Virus record (IMG/VR): IMGVR_UViG_3300024042_000004
Span: 1-24,952 of that record
From: a virus
Taxonomy: Duplodnaviria; Caudoviricetes
Direction: 5' to 3' (one strand)
DNA: 24,952 nt
This document shows, piece by piece, positions 6,572-13,181 of the stretch (positions within the stretch are counted from its first letter, which is position 1; every line of letters begins with the position of its first letter). The notes under the pieces are model-generated. The model did not search any database, was not told the DNA's origin, and was given only the letters and a program-made list of their open reading frames with translations. Both the position numbers and the translations under genes were made by a program.

Positions 6572-6872
6572 TTAAAATGCCTCCCGAGGATTGTGCGGCT
6601 TTCTTAGGAATAACAAGCTTGTTAATGCCTTCTAAAAAAGGGTCTATCAGCCCATTGGCCTCGGCAATTTGTGTCCATAACGTATGGTCGCCATATTCTT
6701 TGGCCGCAATGGAGAATAAATCGCCATTAATGACGGTAATCACTTTCGCATTCGGTGCTGCATTGATAAGGGCTAAGTTAGCTTTAATGCGACCAAGCTT
6801 GGCTTGCAGTAAATACAAGTTGTGCAGTGTGGTTAGCTCGTCGGCTATAACGTTATTGGGTAGTGTGGTCAT
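6561..6872 (-). CDS. LysM-like baseplate protein (P2 gpX-like)
   Basis: VINGDLFSIAAKEYGDHTLWTQIAEANGLIDP...LVIP LysM-like pattern. Confidence 0.8.
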   Translation of the reverse strand: MTTLPNNVIADELTTLHNLYLLQAKLGRIKANLALINAAPNAKVITVINGDLFSIAAKEYGDHTLWTQIAEANGLIDPFLEGINKLVIPKKAAQSSGGILNAK

Positions 6873-7068
6873 TATGGCTTAGCTTATAATTTATATAATT
6901 GTTTAGTGCAGGCACCATCTCGTGAACGAGTAGAGACAAGCCCCACAAGATGAGAAATAAGCAAATTCCTTTAGAAACCCGTTCCTTTTGTTTACGCGAT
7001 AACTCTTTGCTCATCATAAAAACCGCTAGTATTTTGAAAAATGCACTTGGGATGTTAAAATTGTCCAT
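6853..7068 (-). CDS. small membrane protein of antisense cassette A
   Basis: 71 aa, TM GICLFLILWGLSLLV, SD AGGAGG 9 nt upstream of ATG. Confidence 0.7.
   Translation of the reverse strand: MDNFNIPSAFFKILAVFMMSKELSRKQKERVSKGICLFLILWGLSLLVHEMVPALNNYINYKLSHNDHTTQ
7034..7061 (+). promoter_or_regulatory. promoter of antisense RNA A
   Basis: TTGAAA (7034-7039), 16-nt spacer, extended -10 TGtTAAAAT (7053-7061). Confidence 0.6.
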
Positions 7069-7176
7069 AGCAATTGCCTCCTGTTTAGGTAATTGACGCG
7101 CCTTCGGTAATTGGGTTTACGCGAAGGCATAAAAAAAGCCCTCAAAGGTTGCTGCCAATGAGGGCTTTGTTGTTTT
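7069..7176 (+). ncRNA. putative antisense small RNA, copy A
   Basis: CAATTGCCT-cctgttt-AGGTAATTG; GCCTTCG GTAA-ttgggt-TTAC g CGAAGGC; AAAGCCCTCA...TGAGGGCTTT. Same architecture as copies B and C. Confidence 0.65.
7131..7176. terminator. potentially bidirectional intrinsic terminator
   Basis: 10-bp stem AAAGCCCTCA/TGAGGGCTTT. A7 on the left (U7 for minus-strand RNA) and TTTGTTGTTTT on the right. Confidence 0.65.
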
Positions 7177-7883: not shown

Positions 7884-9881
7884 TTAGCGCGCCATGTTCA
7901 TGCCGGGTTGTATAGAGCCAACTCTTGGGTTGACTGAAGACGTACCCGTTTGCGGCTTGTTAAGCTCATTGACTTGGTACATTGTTACGCCTTCAAAAAG
8001 CTTTCTGCCGTCAACATCAAACCGGCTATGCAATTGGATAGCTTGTTTTTGTGCTGAAGCTGGAGGTGGCACGGTAATTTGAGTAGGCATACCAAAGCCT
8101 GAAGGAAGCATTGGCATAGAGTTTCTGCCGGAGCTCTTTGCTGTAGAGTCGAACATGTCGTTTGCGGCTTTAGCTCCAGAAGTGTCATAAATCTTTTTGA
8201 CAATCTTGCCACCATAATTTAAAGCCGCATCCTTTTTTTGGCCTGCAGTTGCATCTTTATCAGAAAAGGTTTCGAGTAATTTTGCTGTGGTGTCAAGAAA
8301 GCCTGTGAGCCTATCCATTGCATTTAAAATAGCTGGCGATGTAAATTTCCCAAGAGCTGTTTCAAATCTATTTAGTGCCTCTGTTAAGGCTTTTTCACTT
8401 CCGGTTGGTATGCTTAAGGCTTTTTTAAAGCTCTCATCTACACCCATAGCCTTTGGACTTACCTTGGCTGATAAAATAGCTTTCTCTAGTGATACATCAA
8501 TAAGCCCCGCCAATGCGGCTCCTGTTCTATTGCCAAAATCGTAATTAATCTCATTAAGAATATCTTTTTTAGCGGTTATGCCATGCTTTGCAAGCTGCGG
8601 TAAATAAACACCTTCGAACCAGGCTACAACATTATTACTTAATGCATCACTACCTAGGACGGCACCAGGAAGAACTTTTTTAATAGAGCCAACTTTATTA
8701 TATTTTAGTTTTGTTTTATCAAGTATACCAAGCTCGGATAAACGCTCGGCTGTTGATTGCGTCATGCTTCCGCTTTGAAGCTGACGCTGAATTGAGGTTA
8801 GTCCAGTGCCCGCACGATGACCGCCCGCTTCTTGAATAATAGGTTCGAGCATATAGAATGTATCAAGAGCCATATTCTTTGCGGCAATGCCTCCTGTCTG
8901 CATAAAGTTTAAGAATTGCGTAGGAAGCACACGGCCACCAGATGAACTGATTACTTTTTGAAAAGTGTCTAAAACAGGCTTGAGCTTTTCGGGGTCTTTT
9001 GTGCCCAAGTACATTTCTGCGGCTCGAACTAGGTCTCTATTTTGAGCATGATTATAATTAGGGATTATTGAAGAATTTGCAAACTCCGCTCTTGCTAACA
9101 TTGGTGCTATCTTTTCTGCTGCCACAGGGTCTTTCAATACCTGAGCCGCATCTGTAAGAGATTTTAATAGGGAAGTTGGTGAAATGCCTTTTTCTTGATT
9201 GCTAAAAGCAAATCTAACAGCTCTTTCTCTAGCTGAATCACCAAAGCCCATAAGATCAAATTGCGCAAGCGTTTTCTGATACTCTTTATCTGCCTGGTAT
9301 GAGCCTTTTACGGTATTATAAGCTCCATATGCGGCGGCGCTAATAGCTATAGAGCCGGGGTTATATCCAAAGGGCCCAAGATGCATATTTCTAGCATGAA
9401 CACTTGCGCCTCCCCCTTCTGGCGCAGATTTTCTGCCCTTTGAGATTGCTCCGCCAATAGTCCTGGAATGGGCCGTCGCTGCGTTCAATCCTTCCATATT
9501 AGCGCTAAGCTGCCTAACCTTTGCTGATAAAGCATCCACTTTAGCTATTGACGATGCTGTTTTAATATTAAATTTATCAAATCGATTGATTGAGCTTAAA
9601 GTTCTATCGCCTAACGTGGAAAAAGAATTATTAAGCGAATTTAACGCACTTTTAGACCCGTATAAGGCTTCCCGAAATGCGTGCATTTTGGGGTTTAATT
9701 TGCCTGTTAACTGATCTAGCCGTGTGATTTGATCATTAATTGGCCGTAAACGCTTGTTAAGGACCTCAAGAGCTTCGTTGGTTCGCCTAATGGCACGCCA
9801 AAAGCTTTGTAGTTTTTTCTCAGCATCGCCTGTAATAGTGATACGCGTTGCTATAGCATACGCTTCTTCAAAATGTGCCAT
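7884..9881 (-). CDS. tail tape measure protein
   Basis: 665 aa, helical Ala/Lys/Ser-rich, N-terminal coiled coil, C-terminal DVDGR motif, position before baseplate genes. Confidence 0.8.
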   Translation of the reverse strand: MAHFEEAYAIATRITITGDAEKKLQSFWRAIRRTNEALEVLNKRLRPINDQITRLDQLTGKLNPKMHAFREALYGSKSALNSLNNSFSTLGDRTLSSINRFDKFNIKTASSIAKVDALSAKVRQLSANMEGLNAATAHSRTIGGAISKGRKSAPEGGGASVHARNMHLGPFGYNPGSIAISAAAYGAYNTVKGSYQADKEYQKTLAQFDLMGFGDSARERAVRFAFSNQEKGISPTSLLKSLTDAAQVLKDPVAAEKIAPMLARAEFANSSIIPNYNHAQNRDLVRAAEMYLGTKDPEKLKPVLDTFQKVISSSGGRVLPTQFLNFMQTGGIAAKNMALDTFYMLEPIIQEAGGHRAGTGLTSIQRQLQSGSMTQSTAERLSELGILDKTKLKYNKVGSIKKVLPGAVLGSDALSNNVVAWFEGVYLPQLAKHGITAKKDILNEINYDFGNRTGAALAGLIDVSLEKAILSAKVSPKAMGVDESFKKALSIPTGSEKALTEALNRFETALGKFTSPAILNAMDRLTGFLDTTAKLLETFSDKDATAGQKKDAALNYGGKIVKKIYDTSGAKAANDMFDSTAKSSGRNSMPMLPSGFGMPTQITVPPPASAQKQAIQLHSRFDVDGRKLFEGVTMYQVNELNKPQTGTSSVNPRVGSIQPGMNMAR

Positions 9882-10353
9882 AACCGTGTTCCAATTGTTT
9901 TAAACTTTCGCTTTTCAACCATAGCCGCACAGATTGGGCTACAATCTTTTTAATTTTGTCTCTATTTTCAAACATAGCCGCACCTAGCACAGGTCTTGGC
10001 GGAATATGATTGGTTCCAAGCTCTTGGTAAGCCATAATTGGATTTTTGGAGCCCACAAATACTGAGTTTGTTACAACAGAAAATTCTATTGACTCCATCA
10101 GCTCTCCGCTTCTATAAAGCGGATCATTAGGAGAATAGCCTTCCCTCTGACGCTGCTCTTGAGTAGCGTCTTTTAACTCAGCCCATTCCTCAAAAAGACC
10201 ATGGTCTGGCTGATAATGACCGAATTTTCTTTTGCTTGCATCTTGTATGAATTTACCGAGAATAGTCAGAGTTGCTTTTTTGTAGATAGCTTCGCTGGCA
10301 ATCACTTTTTTAATATGATTGCCAAATTCTTCAAAGGTTTTAAATTCTTTCAT
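9868..10353 (-). CDS. virion morphogenesis/tail completion protein (HK97 gp10 or Mu gpG-like)
   Basis: PLYRSGELMESI, YQELGTNHIPPRPVL motifs. Confidence 0.8.
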   Translation of the reverse strand: MKEFKTFEEFGNHIKKVIASEAIYKKATLTILGKFIQDASKRKFGHYQPDHGLFEEWAELKDATQEQRQREGYSPNDPLYRSGELMESIEFSVVTNSVFVGSKNPIMAYQELGTNHIPPRPVLGAAMFENRDKIKKIVAQSVRLWLKSESLKQLEHGYGTF

Positions 10354-10937
10354 TCGTAATAGGTAAAGTGCTTCGCAACCCGCTGTAGCTTGTCTGTATT
10401 AAAATTATCCCAATTTATCTTATCGTAAAGGGGCCGGGTAAATTCAAAAGAAAAAACTTTTATTTGCTTAGGATTGCCATAATCATCCGAGTCATCAATA
10501 TAGCCTATAATTTTAATCTTATCTGTTGAAGGTTCGTTATATAAATCCCTTGTAATTATGCCTGCGAAGTATAGTAGCATTAACCCTGTAATTTCAGGTC
10601 TGTCAGATATTGGATCAAAATTTTTACTAACAGTAATTTTCCCCTGGCTTATGAAGTTTGGCAAAGTCTCAATTGCTTCGTTCTGGCTTACTGAAACTAT
10701 ATATGAATCATCCGAATAATTTTTATGAACGCTAAAACCAGGGTATAGGTCTCTATTTACCTGTAATATATTATCTATTCTCTCTTTGGGAGTAATTATT
10801 TTTTGTTGTTGATTTTCAGGTTTAGTCCCATTGTCCGTGGAGGATTCGCCTTCATTTGAATAGTGAGAAAATCCCATAAAGAATATTGAAACGATTATTA
10901 TGCATACTACAAAAGCTGCTTCTTTAGCCCTAGACAT
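10350..10937 (-). CDS. N-terminally membrane-anchored hypothetical protein (moron)
   Basis: TM AAFVVCIIIVSIFFMGF, polar linker, globular domain, AT-rich, SD GAGGAG. Confidence 0.75.
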   Translation of the reverse strand: MSRAKEAAFVVCIIIVSIFFMGFSHYSNEGESSTDNGTKPENQQQKIITPKERIDNILQVNRDLYPGFSVHKNYSDDSYIVSVSQNEAIETLPNFISQGKITVSKNFDPISDRPEITGLMLLYFAGIITRDLYNEPSTDKIKIIGYIDDSDDYGNPKQIKVFSFEFTRPLYDKINWDNFNTDKLQRVAKHFTYYE

Positions 10938-11054
10938 AACATAATTACTCCTCAGTTAATAACTAAGGCATCATAAGCCAATTTATCCAATTCGAGCAAG
11001 CTTTAGGGAAATTCCCGATGGCAAAAAATCTTTGCCATTATCACATAATAAATG

Positions 11055-11095
11055 TTGTAATCACTGTAAAACCATCTATAATACATATTATATCA
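11055..11095. promoter_or_regulatory. overlapping promoters and palindromic operator (hicAB and moron)
   Basis: Plus: TTGTAA-16-TATAAT (11055-11082). Minus: TGaTATAAT (11095-11087). Palindrome TATAATA-ca-TATTATA (11077-11092). Confidence 0.65.
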
Positions 11096-11112
11096 TGTGC
11101 AAGGCGCTTTAA

Positions 11113-11298
11113 ATGGACGGCAAAACAGTAATTAAAATCTTAGAACAAAATGGCTTTAAATGTGTCCGTATCAACGGCAGTCATCATATTATGCAGAATG
11201 GCCAGCTATCAGTTCCCGTGCCCGTCCACAGTAAGCATGACATTAAAATCGGCACGCTTAAAAATATTGAAAAAAGATCTGGAGTAAAATTAAAATGA
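11113..11298 (+). CDS. hicA: HicA family mRNA interferase toxin
   Basis: 61 aa, LEQNGF..VRINGSHH..VPVPVH...I.IGTL.NI. Confidence 0.92.
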   Translation: MDGKTVIKILEQNGFKCVRINGSHHIMQNGQLSVPVPVHSKHDIKIGTLKNIEKRSGVKLK

Positions 11299-11732
11299 GC
11301 GAACTTAAATTAACCTACTTTGCAAATCTTGCTGACGCTGAAGAAGGCGGATATATCGTGACCTTCCGGGATTTGCCCAATGTTTTTACAGAAGGCGACA
11401 CCCTTGAAGAGGCTCTTTTTAATGCCCAAGAAGTGCTAGATGGCATGCTTGCAGTAATGTCATCCAATAACGAGGAAATAAACGATCCATCTCCTGGGCA
11501 AGATGGTGAATACCCTATCCCCGTTAGTCCTGATATAGCTGCGCCTATATTATTACACTTGTTACGTAAAAAACGCTCTCAAACGATGGCTAATGTGGCT
11601 AGAGCAATGAGCATACCTTACCAACAGTACCAAAGGCTTGAGCATAATTGTAATATGACTTTAAAAAGTCTCAATAAAGCCGCTGTTGCAATGGGCGCCC
11701 GTGTTGAAATTAGAGTTTATTTAAATGACTAG
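11295..11732 (+). CDS. hicB: HicB family antitoxin with C-terminal HTH
   Basis: EEGGYIVTFRDLPNVFTEGDTLEEALFNAQEVL, Xre-type HTH (TMANVARAMSIPYQQYQRLE), ATGA overlap with hicA. Confidence 0.92.
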   Translation: MSELKLTYFANLADAEEGGYIVTFRDLPNVFTEGDTLEEALFNAQEVLDGMLAVMSSNNEEINDPSPGQDGEYPIPVSPDIAAPILLHLLRKKRSQTMANVARAMSIPYQQYQRLEHNCNMTLKSLNKAAVAMGARVEIRVYLND

Positions 11733-11762
11733 AGCAACCCTGAATATGCGCTCTTGCCCTAA

Positions 11763-11870
11763 TTAGCTTTGGAGCAATAAAGCACTTACTACAGCAAATG
11801 CGACTAAGCTTATAGCCACAAATGCTATCAAGCAGTCACGGTTAATTTGTTTGTCTATTGGGTTGTTCAT
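11763..11870 (-). CDS. 35-aa single-TM peptide (not in ORF track)
   Basis: Hand translation MNNPIDKQINRDCLIAFVAISLVAFAVVSALLLQS. Weak SD (GGGT), 15 nt after the previous stop. Confidence 0.5.
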   Translation of the reverse strand: MNNPIDKQINRDCLIAFVAISLVAFAVVSALLLQS

Positions 11871-11885
11871 GATTTTACCCAATAT

Positions 11886-12014
11886 TTAATGAATAAATTC
11901 TTTAACAATTAAAGCAATTGGCAATGCTGCTATTCCAAAACCGATTAGCAAAGCTACTCTACACATCGTAGTAACCATTTTATCTTGCTGATTTTCTGTT
12001 AATTTTCCGCTCAT
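11886..12014 (-). CDS. 42-aa single-TM peptide (not in ORF track)
   Basis: Hand translation MSGKLTENQQDKMVTTMCRVALLIGFGIAALPIALIVKEFIH. SD GAGGT upstream. Confidence 0.65.
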   Translation of the reverse strand: MSGKLTENQQDKMVTTMCRVALLIGFGIAALPIALIVKEFIH

Positions 12015-12031
12015 AATTACCTCTTTCATAC

Positions 12032-12241
12032 TTACGATTTTTTTATTTTTTCTTTCGCCTTATAATCGAAATAATCTTTAAGCAAAGGTGCGATCCCATT
12101 CAATAACCACTTAATTCCCAAACAAGTTGCAGGTATCAGTATTGATAGACTGATTGCCGTAATTGCAAAGCTACTACTTGGCATCTGTATCATTACCTCT
12201 CTAAAAGAGTGAAAAAATAAAACGATTTTGTTATCATTCAC
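12032..12241 (-). CDS. small membrane protein of antisense cassette B
   Basis: GTG start with SD AAGGAGGT, TM FAITAISLSILIPATCLGIKWLL, internal GAGGT SD before Met20. Confidence 0.7.
   Translation of the reverse strand: MNDNKIVLFFHSFREVMIQMPSSSFAITAISLSILIPATCLGIKWLLNGIAPLLKDYFDYKAKEKIKKS
12209..12237 (+). promoter_or_regulatory. promoter of antisense RNA B
   Basis: GTGAAA, 17-nt spacer, extended -10 TGtTATCAT (12229-12237). Confidence 0.55.
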
Positions 12242-12243
12242 TT

Positions 12244-12335
12244 ATGATTACCTCCTTTATAGGTAGTCAACACGCTATCGGTGGTGGTACACGCGATAGC
12301 ATTAACCCCAAAGCTTATTGCTCTTGGGGTTTTTT
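12244..12335 (+). ncRNA. putative antisense small RNA, copy B
   Basis: GATTACCT-cctttat-AGGTAGTC; GCTATCG GTG-gtggta-CAC g CGATAGC; terminator AACCCCAA...TTGGGGTT-TTTT. Confidence 0.7.
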
Positions 12336-12531
12336 ATTTTTGTTCTTCAAACTGAAAGTTAGCCCAGTTAAATTTGGCGCCACGAAATTCAGAAAAGCAT
12401 ATTGAGAAGGCCGTCACAAAGTAACTTGGCATTTCGCCTTGCCAAGGCTTTTCTTGGCCATACACCGCGTCCCAAGGCATGCGGTTATAGATTAACCAAG
12501 CACGCTCCTTAAACTCAGGAGCGGTAGCTAT
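12334..12531 (-). CDS. -1 frameshift extension of tail assembly chaperone (gpGT-like C-terminus)
   Basis: 65 open codons in the -1 frame after A AAA AAA: IATAPEFKERAWLIYNRMPWDAVYG...FSEFRGAKFNWANFQFEEQK. Confidence 0.8.
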   Translation of the reverse strand: MATAPEFKERAWLIYNRMPWDAVYGQEKPWQGEMPSYFVTAFSICFSEFRGAKFNWANFQFEEQK

Positions 12532-12537
12532 TTTTTT
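12503..12537 (-). other. programmed -1 ribosomal frameshift signal
   Basis: Slippery A AAA AAA (12537-12531), 7-nt spacer, hairpin CGCTCCT-gagttta-AGGAGCG (12523-12503). Confidence 0.8.
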
Positions 12538-12905
12538 ATTAAATCTTTCTCCTGCTGTTCATTCTCTTCGGTCTCTTGGCCAATGAGCTGCATGATGCCC
12601 TCTAAAATAGCCTGATGGCCTTCATAGCCTAAGCGTTGAATAAGAGCCTCTAATTCGCGTTCGCTATTTTTCGTCACTGGAGATCCATCAATAGCTGATA
12701 CCCAGTTATAAATGCTAATTTCTTTAAGATAGACGTCATTGCTAGAATTATCGCCGAGTATTTTAATAAAGCGGAATTTCTCAAGGATTGGTGGCCTTCT
12801 AACTGTAATGATGCGTCCTAAAGAGTCCTTTATGTCTGCTTTTTCAGCCTGCACGACTTGCGATGGTGTATCACCTTGTAAAATTTCTACTTTTGGTTTT
12901 TGCAT
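12528..12905 (-). CDS. tail assembly chaperone (gpG-like)
   Basis: 125 aa, downstream of tube gene, acidic C-terminus ending IKK on a slippery site. Confidence 0.8.
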   Translation of the reverse strand: MQKPKVEILQGDTPSQVVQAEKADIKDSLGRIITVRRPPILEKFRFIKILGDNSSNDVYLKEISIYNWVSAIDGSPVTKNSERELEALIQRLGYEGHQAILEGIMQLIGQETEENEQQEKDLIKK

Positions 12906-12921: not shown

Positions 12922-13095
12922 TTATGTTAAGAATAATTTTATAAAATCTGTTAGAGCATGAATGATGCTGGGCAACGAATAGATAAAGACCACAGTAATA
13001 ATAGTATTGGCCCATTTAGCCGAATGCTTTTCGCTGCCTGCTAATTTCATGATGAATTCTTTATATTTAATATAGGTTTTGCTATGATTATTCAT
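12922..13095 (-). CDS. 57-aa membrane peptide of antisense cassette C (not in ORF track)
   Basis: Hand translation MNNHSKTYIKYKEFIMKLAGSEKHSAKWANTIITVVFIYSLPSIIHALTDFIKLFLT. SD-like AGGCAGGT. Confidence 0.65.
   Translation of the reverse strand: MNNHSKTYIKYKEFIMKLAGSEKHSAKWANTIITVVFIYSLPSIIHALTDFIKLFLT
13060..13088 (+). promoter_or_regulatory. promoter of antisense RNA C
   Basis: TTTATA, 17-nt spacer, extended -10 TGcTATGAT (13080-13088). Confidence 0.6.
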
Positions 13096-13179
13096 ATGAT
13101 TACCTGCCTTTTAGGTAGTCTTCGCTCTCTCGGTGCGCTAACACGCGAGAGAACTAAGCCCCTTCGCTGGGGCTTTTTT
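13096..13179 (+). ncRNA. putative antisense small RNA, copy C
   Basis: GATTACCT-gcctttt-AGGTAGTC; TCTCTCG GTG-cgctaa-CAC g CGAGAGA; terminator AAGCCCC-ttcgct-GGGGCTT-TTTT. Confidence 0.7.
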
Positions 13180-13181
13180 AT

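Follow-up and report, generated by a model that had tools for sequence, protein, structure and literature searches.

The window (the whole stretch of DNA analysed, 24,952 nt) is a phage head-and-tail operon on the minus strand, judging from its gene content, Pfam matches included. A 40-kb provirus record identical to the window (G001) further contains an integrase, an S24-type repressor and a Q-like antiterminator (phrog_79, E 1.4e-6); the phage is therefore temperate, and its late operon is probably Q-dependent. The sequencing runs containing this DNA are labelled ant metagenome or metagenome. Window-identical copies (L004, L137-L139, L147-L149) were recovered, none of which was counted as independent.

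Three cassettes, A, B and C, sit between tail genes of this one phage (Table 1). Cassette B, its three small genes and the neighbouring hicAB pair (hicB, 11295-11732) form an insertion at about 10986-12328 that is missing from L005, a related phage whose tube gene is 89% identical to that of the window. The tube and chaperone genes of Ralstonia phage Raharianne abut, and its junctions carry no small genes. The gap in L005 and the abutting genes of Raharianne identify the cassettes as insertions. As in a moron, the insertion lies between conserved late genes and is missing in relatives; the other moron property, a promoter of its own for the cargo in the lysogen, was not found, since only the antisense RNA has a predicted promoter.

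Table 1. Cassettes A, B and C and adjoining features, with positions in the window.
Feature	Position	Strand	Description
ORF A	6853..7068	-	71 aa single-TM protein; N-terminal half B2-like, C-terminus B1-like
Cassette A	7034..7176	+	promoter 7034-7061; predicted RNA A 7069-7176; terminator U tract also on mRNA strand
hicAB toxin-antitoxin pair	11113..11732	+	Pfam matches for hicA and hicB; same insertion as cassette B
ORF B3	11763..11870	-	35 aa single-TM peptide, ATG start; RBS inside its own predicted hairpin
ORF B2	11886..12014	-	42 aa single-TM peptide, ATG start; 47 aa if from ATG 12029
Predicted mRNA helix	12008..12084	-	end of B1 coding region pairs with B2 RBS; putative translational-coupling element
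SD of ORF B2	12016..12023	-	second seed "repeat"; homologous to internal start of other cassettes
ORF B1	12032..12241	-	69 aa single-TM protein, GTG start, in-frame leader; 50 aa short form from Met20 (12184)
Internal SD (GAGGTAAT on mRNA)	12192..12199	-	serves Met20 of B1; first seed "repeat"
Predicted sigma-70 promoter of RNA B	12209..12237	+	-35 GTGAAA, 17 nt, extended -10 TG-n-TATCAT; inside first B1 codons
Predicted RNA B, about 95 nt	12244..12338	+	from folds and covariation among five copies
RNA B hairpins	12245-12269; 12274-12300; 12304-12338	+	anti-RBS; bulged; terminator (predicted fold)
ORF C	12922..13095	-	57 aa hydrophobic peptide, internal Met16
Cassette C	13060..13180	+	promoter 13060-13088; predicted RNA C 13096-13180

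The first-pass annotation had described three minus-strand single-TM ORFs of 69, 42 and 35 aa converging on hicB, and both their coordinates and their hydrophobicity agree with this. Each ORF contains one hydrophobic 19-mer, with a mean Kyte-Doolittle value of 2.1 (B1), 2.4 (B2) or 2.8 (B3). B1 is a member of a phrog_34597-like family: it scores 26.3 bits against an HMM built without it, a value reached by 0 of 500 shuffles. Direct BLASTP between B1 and P0017 gave no alignment, so that this link requires the profile. B2 has homologues in L005 and in P0007, and it is homologous to the part downstream of the internal start in other cassette genes. B3 matched nothing in the family libraries, to which its homologue search was confined. 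None of the peptides matched a family in Pfam, NCBIfam or PADLOC, and the ESM Atlas yielded no family either (best scores 0.78 and 0.84). The P0008 match and the cyanophage matches were set aside as chance hydrophobic similarity.

The SD assigned earlier to an internal Met of B1 lies at 12192-12199 and fits Met20, whose codon (12184) stands 10 nt downstream, and not Met17. The last two bases of GAGGTAAT at this site begin the codon of Met17 itself, which makes the SD suitable for Met20, and homologues begin at a Met-Pro equivalent to Met20. Opening the RBS of B2 is predicted to cost 10.3 kcal/mol, compared with 3.7 +/- 1.1 after shuffling of the upstream part (the native cost was reached by 0 of 40 shuffles). 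The pairing of the B1 end with this RBS is a predicted case of the usual sign of translational coupling. Occlusion by upstream sequence was negative for the seven other starts examined, B3 included; at B3 the occlusion is local and independent of the upstream sequence (25 of 40 shuffles). A 14-codon out-of-frame ORF (12237-12193, minus strand) begins 4 nt after the B1 GTG, and its stop overlaps the ATG of Met17 (TAATG), which could offer a mok-like coupling route.

RNA B would be transcribed from the plus strand. Its 5' hairpin has a 9-bp stem complementary to the B1 RBS. Across the five window-type copies, 98.9% of the cells pair, compared with 32-42% in slid controls, and 6 of 19 pairs have changed on both sides; since the structure was derived from these same five sequences, the covariation is supportive and does not amount to a formal test. 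Five of the cells are G-U pairs on the plus strand and mismatches on the mRNA, which favours the antisense strand. The promoter, the covariation and this strand asymmetry together make it very likely that RNA B really exists as an antisense RNA covering the first RBS. The promoters were called by likeness to the consensus, in DNA rich in A and T, and over the full region promoter-like sites are not in excess (10, compared with 7.2 +/- 3.3). RNA run X3 covers the whole 7.5 kb flatly and evenly in long contigs, and for this reason RNA B, its strand or its level cannot be read from it. Rfam assigned the window cassettes to no family, giving only weak matches that were terminator-driven or due to chance, and blastn (RNA B against phages, RNA A against plasmids, L199 against E. 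coli genomes) returned nothing meaningful. Hairpin 2 was also considered as a DNA operator; this was ruled out by its variable spacer and covarying stems.

Cassettes A, B and C are paralogous. All three have an extended -10 promoter on the plus strand, placed within the opening codons of a small gene on the minus strand, followed by the 9-bp RBS-complementary hairpin, a second hairpin whose core does not vary and which carries a single bulged G, and a terminator. Two further copies occur in L005, at the C and A sites. Loops differ among all five window-type copies, and the stems are kept. Pattern scans detected this three-hairpin RNA in two phages only, as window-identical copies and the two L005 copies. 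Their yields were 3 loci, 3 loci, 6 genome matches (none with hairpin 1) and 16 stretches (8 real, 8 due to chance); a wide scan, over 22 of 64 parts, gave at least 121 loci, and among the matches listed only window-identical copies held up. RNA model R2 revealed no further copies in G001 or G002 and none in Pseudomonas, Ralstonia or Komagataeibacter loci; A6 had no match in genome G003, an uninformative outcome. At the A site, peptide A looks like a fusion of two peptides that are separate in L005 (13262-13633). L005 also has an extra 41-aa single-TM ORF (8450-8575) between the tube gene and the C-site cassette, which ends at the cassette terminator and is missing from the window.

The second A-site peptide of L005 matches phrog_34597 (E 4.8e-6), and similar peptides are encoded in 23 Pseudomonas phage records at near-identical loci. 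These loci have the same layout with a different RNA body: terminator, RBS hairpin, GTG-AAT start, in-frame leader, and a second SD with its Met. The Pseudomonas aeruginosa version is present on 397 contigs. A diverged member led to ten further loci; in various phage types several of them directly follow the major capsid gene or another head gene, and some contain runs of single-TM ORFs. Pasteurella phage Pmp3, to which a weak peptide match (E 0.01) was the sole lead, has the full layout before two TM genes; its neighbouring ant gene is preceded by a weaker promoter match and a terminator. Neither PAJU2 nor Pmp3 has an annotated feature at the peptide. The cassette layout with homologous peptides is thus found in Pseudomonas, Pasteurella and metagenomic phages. 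B1 and the second A-site peptide of L005 belong to PHROG 34597 or lie near it, and this PHROG has no function or RNA attached. A printed description of the cassette family was not found in the literature searched (main texts, largely outside subscription journals). L194, L195, L197 and L202 contain runs of single-TM ORFs of about 30-60 aa beside capsid genes of unrelated phage types; several of these ORFs end in Ile/Val-Arg-Trp-Trp, and they fall into PHROGs 6632, 12997, 4493 and 34597, where function is unassigned.

For comparison, 14 cassettes were assembled: the five window-type copies, eight of the ten new loci (the near-duplicates L196 and L198 being omitted) and one of the 23 Pseudomonas loci. 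They are not independent and represent about 6-7 lineages, judged by eye. An antisense promoter scoring at least 8 and ending 0-5 nt from the start codon is present in 14/14 cassettes, compared with 3/28 backbone genes. In 13 of the cassettes the antisense strand gives the more stable 5' RBS hairpin, and all 14 have G-U pairs on that strand. In 13/14, B1 included, a consensus scan of the 300 nt upstream revealed nothing like a sense promoter, so the cargo should depend on late read-through. The leader is open and in frame in every cassette. Its conserved residues encode the -35 and -10 elements, the Lys-Val-Lys codons being the -35, and in L203 this leader precedes, as a fusion, a soluble protein unrelated to the peptides. 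The leader therefore belongs to the expression socket and not to the peptide; the phrog_34597 profile includes it.

The element is probably best read as a Sar-type cassette in the late operon of a temperate phage, whose RNA B blocks the B1 start in cis, B2 and likely B3 being turned off indirectly. The layout, the insertion, the paralogy, the covariation and the Q-like gene in the same prophage are seen in the sequences; transcription of RNA B, repression and coupling are what we infer. RNA B would be made steadily, also in the lysogen, from the promoter in the first B1 codons, and would block the first start by pairing in cis with the B1 RBS, to which it is fully complementary. Since the seed lies in a stem, pairing with the leader would likely begin at the variable loops. 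The B2 RBS should remain folded until ribosomes finish B1, and B2 would therefore be off whenever B1 is blocked; B3 would likely be shut off too. Only an excess of Q-dependent late mRNA over the RNA pool would allow the peptides to appear, and in the lysogen they would be off.

RNAs B and C could back each other up. Both the sharing of ATGATTACCT by RNA C (at 13096) and its possible cross-reaction had been pointed out before; the sequence is present, and cross-reaction is predicted, with net energies of -14.1 kcal/mol for RNA B on the C RBS and -14.6 kcal/mol for RNA C on the B1 RBS. On the A RBS, RNA B reaches a net -5.2 kcal/mol. The prediction is thus that B and C cross-react and that A does not.

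A competitor of the cis model is the proposal of the first-pass annotation that RNA B binds at three starts (the first start of B1, Met20 and B2) through a repeated seed. The recurrence itself is beyond dispute: ATTACCTC lies on the plus strand at 12247, 12192 and 12016, and both strands of the whole window contain no further copy. Eight-mers that recur twice in the preceding 250 nt occur at only 3 of 24,352 positions, the seed site among them, and the triple is by this count beyond chance. Of the five RNAs, RNA B is the best partner of both the Met20 and the B2 sites. In the raw duplex ranking of RNA B on the minus strand of the window, the cis site leads (-31.8), followed by the C RBS (-22.7) and, in third place, the B2 RBS (-17.5). 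At the B2 RBS, 17 of 18 nt are paired, part of the loop included, and on that strand no raw duplex is better except those at cassette RBSs. The Met20 site is an ordinary one, ranking ninth (-14.0).

The seed, however, is the anti-SD within the 9-bp stem and costs about 9.7 kcal/mol to open. Net energies, calculated with our own script and not with IntaRNA, include the opening costs of both RNAs and are equilibrium estimates that ignore chaperones; over 23 start sites they came to -25.1 kcal/mol in cis (first 28 nt), +0.9 at Met20 and +4.0 at B2. By arithmetic from the computed energies, the value for B2 would become roughly -4 if ribosomes translating B1 opened the helix. B3 has no seed match and hence no such site in the three-start model. 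Moreover, an 8-nt seed match within the next 500 nt was found for cassette B only, 1 of the 14.

The relatives point to another origin of the repeat. The B2 RBS is identical in 13-14 of 16 nt to internal starts in L005. Of these, the A-site internal start pairs better with the foreign RNAs B (-11.6) and C (-13.5) than with its own RNA (-4.7), and the C-site internal start pairs weakly with all five RNAs. The seed is also close to the complement of the canonical extended SD. Descent together with SD consensus explains the repeat, given this identity to internal starts that are poorly paired by their own RNAs, and the counter-reading of ordinary SD consensus, entertained from the outset, accounts for it in its SD part. 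The GAGGTAAT repeats are, on these comparisons, mainly paralogous RBSs, and direct action at three starts is unlikely; a weak, cassette-B-specific second site for RNA B may exist at B2. RNA control thus plausibly extends to the whole mini-operon, as had been suggested, but not through C4-like direct binding at three starts.

RNA B could instead act as an isoform switch, as in P22 sas-sieB. It would block the first start only, so that the short form is made and the leader form is off, and the two forms would differ in activity or one would inhibit the other. The in-frame leader of all 14 cassettes, the Met at codon 16-20 in 12 of them and the internal site, predicted to be left free, are compatible with this, and in some cases a short form is a second gene of its own (B2; L005 13472). 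A sas switch is described in part of PMC12197685. We nevertheless regard such a switch as improbable here: codons 16-20 contain no Met in L194 and L201, A and C have a weak internal SD, and the conservation of the leader, which recurs on the soluble protein of L203, is explained by the promoter that it encodes. RNase III cleavage of the duplex, besides, would probably destroy the mRNA for both forms.

Far less probable is that the RNAs serve mainly as trans immunity factors, with prophage RNA silencing the cassette of a superinfecting phage and loop divergence setting the specificity. The loops that differ in all five copies on conserved stems and the predicted B/C cross-reaction that spares A would suit this role, which is compatible with the cis model, and antisense exclusion by STnc6030 has been published (part of PMC7067206). 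Two phages with this RNA type are, however, too few to assess selection on loops, and because the cargo is an optional insertion, its silencing need not stop an incoming phage. The reading in which there is no antisense RNA, the hairpins acting in the late mRNA by attenuation or RBS occlusion or the ORFs being untranslated remnants, can draw on the U tracts that several cassette terminators have on both strands, and it is barely credible in view of the G-U pairs and the more stable hairpin of the antisense strand, the positioned antisense promoter of all 14 cassettes and the peptide frames kept across distant phages.

With the cis model as the preferred reading, the closest known system is Sar-ant of P22. 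According to the P22 annotation, Psar lies inside the first ant codons, the sar RNA covers the RBS and a terminator follows; a scan of the sar locus placed an extended -10 three nt from the start codon. The window element resembles it in the opposite-strand small RNA, the promoter in the first target codons, the RNA over the RBS and the terminator, and like sar-ant it occupies a variable part of the late operon. Unlike Sar-ant, the window cargo consists of single-TM peptides without an Ant match, and Pant, mnt and arc are absent. The window phage further differs in its three paralogous copies, the extra conserved bulged hairpin, and, in cassette B, the second in-frame start and the downstream peptide genes. 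An 'ant moron' is described in part of PMC2629481, sections of PMC13397905 treat P22 sRNAs, and sar, sas and c4 are treated in part of PMC12197685.

By sequence and covariance model the element showed no membership of the sar family: Rfam gave no sar match, and RNA B compared with the P22 locus scored z -1.0. The other cargo, the lack of Pant, mnt and arc, the extra hairpin and the several copies likewise argue against membership, and the element would best be called Sar-like in layout and proposed action, outside the sar family. RNA B has little nucleotide similarity to the wider cassette family (z up to 2.9). As it has no sequence likeness to sar, the link runs via the B1 protein and the layout. 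Of 16 cassettes compared, two resemble the P22 sar locus (L197, z 6.6; L170, z 6.9; 0/200 shuffles each), and four more reach 1/200 shuffles; the likeness of L197 and L170 may perhaps be due partly to shared terminator and anti-SD features.

The sas-sieB/esc products of P22 are in frame with each other. A cis antisense RNA, two products of a membrane-protein gene and a temperate phage are common to this system, as treated in part of PMC12197685, and to cassette B. The differences are the lack of protein similarity (Pfam, PHROGs, NCBIfam) and the promoter and terminator of its own that are predicted for the window RNA.

Type I toxin-antitoxin systems with a 5'-overlapping antitoxin also combine a small hydrophobic single-TM protein with a cis antisense RNA over the start. 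Such a single-TM protein with an antisense-covered start, and an upstream leader with a second start, are known from hok/sok with mokC-hokC and from PtaRNA1. Type I systems differ from the cassettes by the mRNA promoter of their own, which 13/14 cassettes lack, and no homology to known type I toxins was detected in Pfam, NCBIfam or PADLOC, nor any match in Rfam. Type I systems are treated in part of PMC10643148, and ptaRNA1 is mentioned once in the relevant part of PMC3300014.

The analogy with P1 C4, drawn in the first-pass annotation, fails. C4 lies on the same strand as its target, which fits the Rfam loci found in relatives. Like RNA B, P1/P7 C4 is a phage RNA whose short complementary sites recur in an operon close by. 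RNA B, on the other hand, lies on the opposite strand, matches neither RF01695 (C4) nor RF03163 (c4-a1b1), has its seed in a stem and its repeats are not conserved; C4 seeds are presented in loops, according to part of PMC12197685. Real C4, c4-a1b1 and IsrK matches were found by the same Rfam scan before ant in Pseudomonas phages (L167 379-559, L168 697-879), about 0.6-1 kb from a peptide cassette.

The peptides most likely act in the inner membrane, which is a guess from size, hydrophobicity and silencing. Their double silencing suggests that they are harmful or counter-productive in the lysogen, and our guess would be that they are toxic or antagonists of an exclusion system. A broader scheme, which we put forward tentatively and hold to be possible at best, is that the Sar module known from antirepressor genes has turned into a mobile socket for expression. 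Temperate phages of unrelated types (myo-, Mu-like, HK97-like, D3-like) would insert it into their late operons with arrays of membrane peptides. The RNA would set the timing and the isoform (long or short), paralogous RNAs would cross-talk, and the RNA of cassette B would have gained a second direct site. The peptides would then be late-lytic membrane effectors, e.g. escape factors against exclusion or defence.

The comparison suggests, as new here, a Sar-type module carrying uncharacterised membrane-peptide cargo, by which a classic module with a single example, Sar-ant, is extended to a cassette family. It also points to antisense RNAs and small membrane proteins overlooked by annotation, for which an antisense -10 beside the start codon, an RBS hairpin and a terminator provide a simple gene-finding rule. 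The Pseudomonas aeruginosa version, with its many contigs and phage records, makes the mechanism testable in a standard host.

Several observations concern the neighbourhood of cassette B. A strong promoter-like site for hicAB (10/12) at 11055-11100 overlaps the inverted repeat TATAAT-ACAT-ATTATA, likely the HicB operator. No terminator-like site is listed on the plus strand between hicB and ORF B3, so that read-through from hicAB could supply extra antisense RNA across B3-B1. A second related contig in run X3 (record 3) matches the flanks of 10338-12544, which it separates by about 1.1 kb rather than 2.2 kb; this again points to a variable junction. The same variable junction holds a gene for a 195-aa N-terminally anchored protein (10350-10937, minus strand; phrog_8263), whose L005 counterpart is diverged (189 aa) with a conserved 40-nt stretch upstream. 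The end of the tail-chaperone gene (12528-12545, minus strand) has a run of A's followed by a 48-aa ORF (12334-12480, minus strand) kept in L005, the arrangement to be expected of a G/GT-type programmed frameshift. In the prophage early region, a 64-aa ORF (L155, 6539-6733) carries a repeat that resembles a RiPP leader motif.
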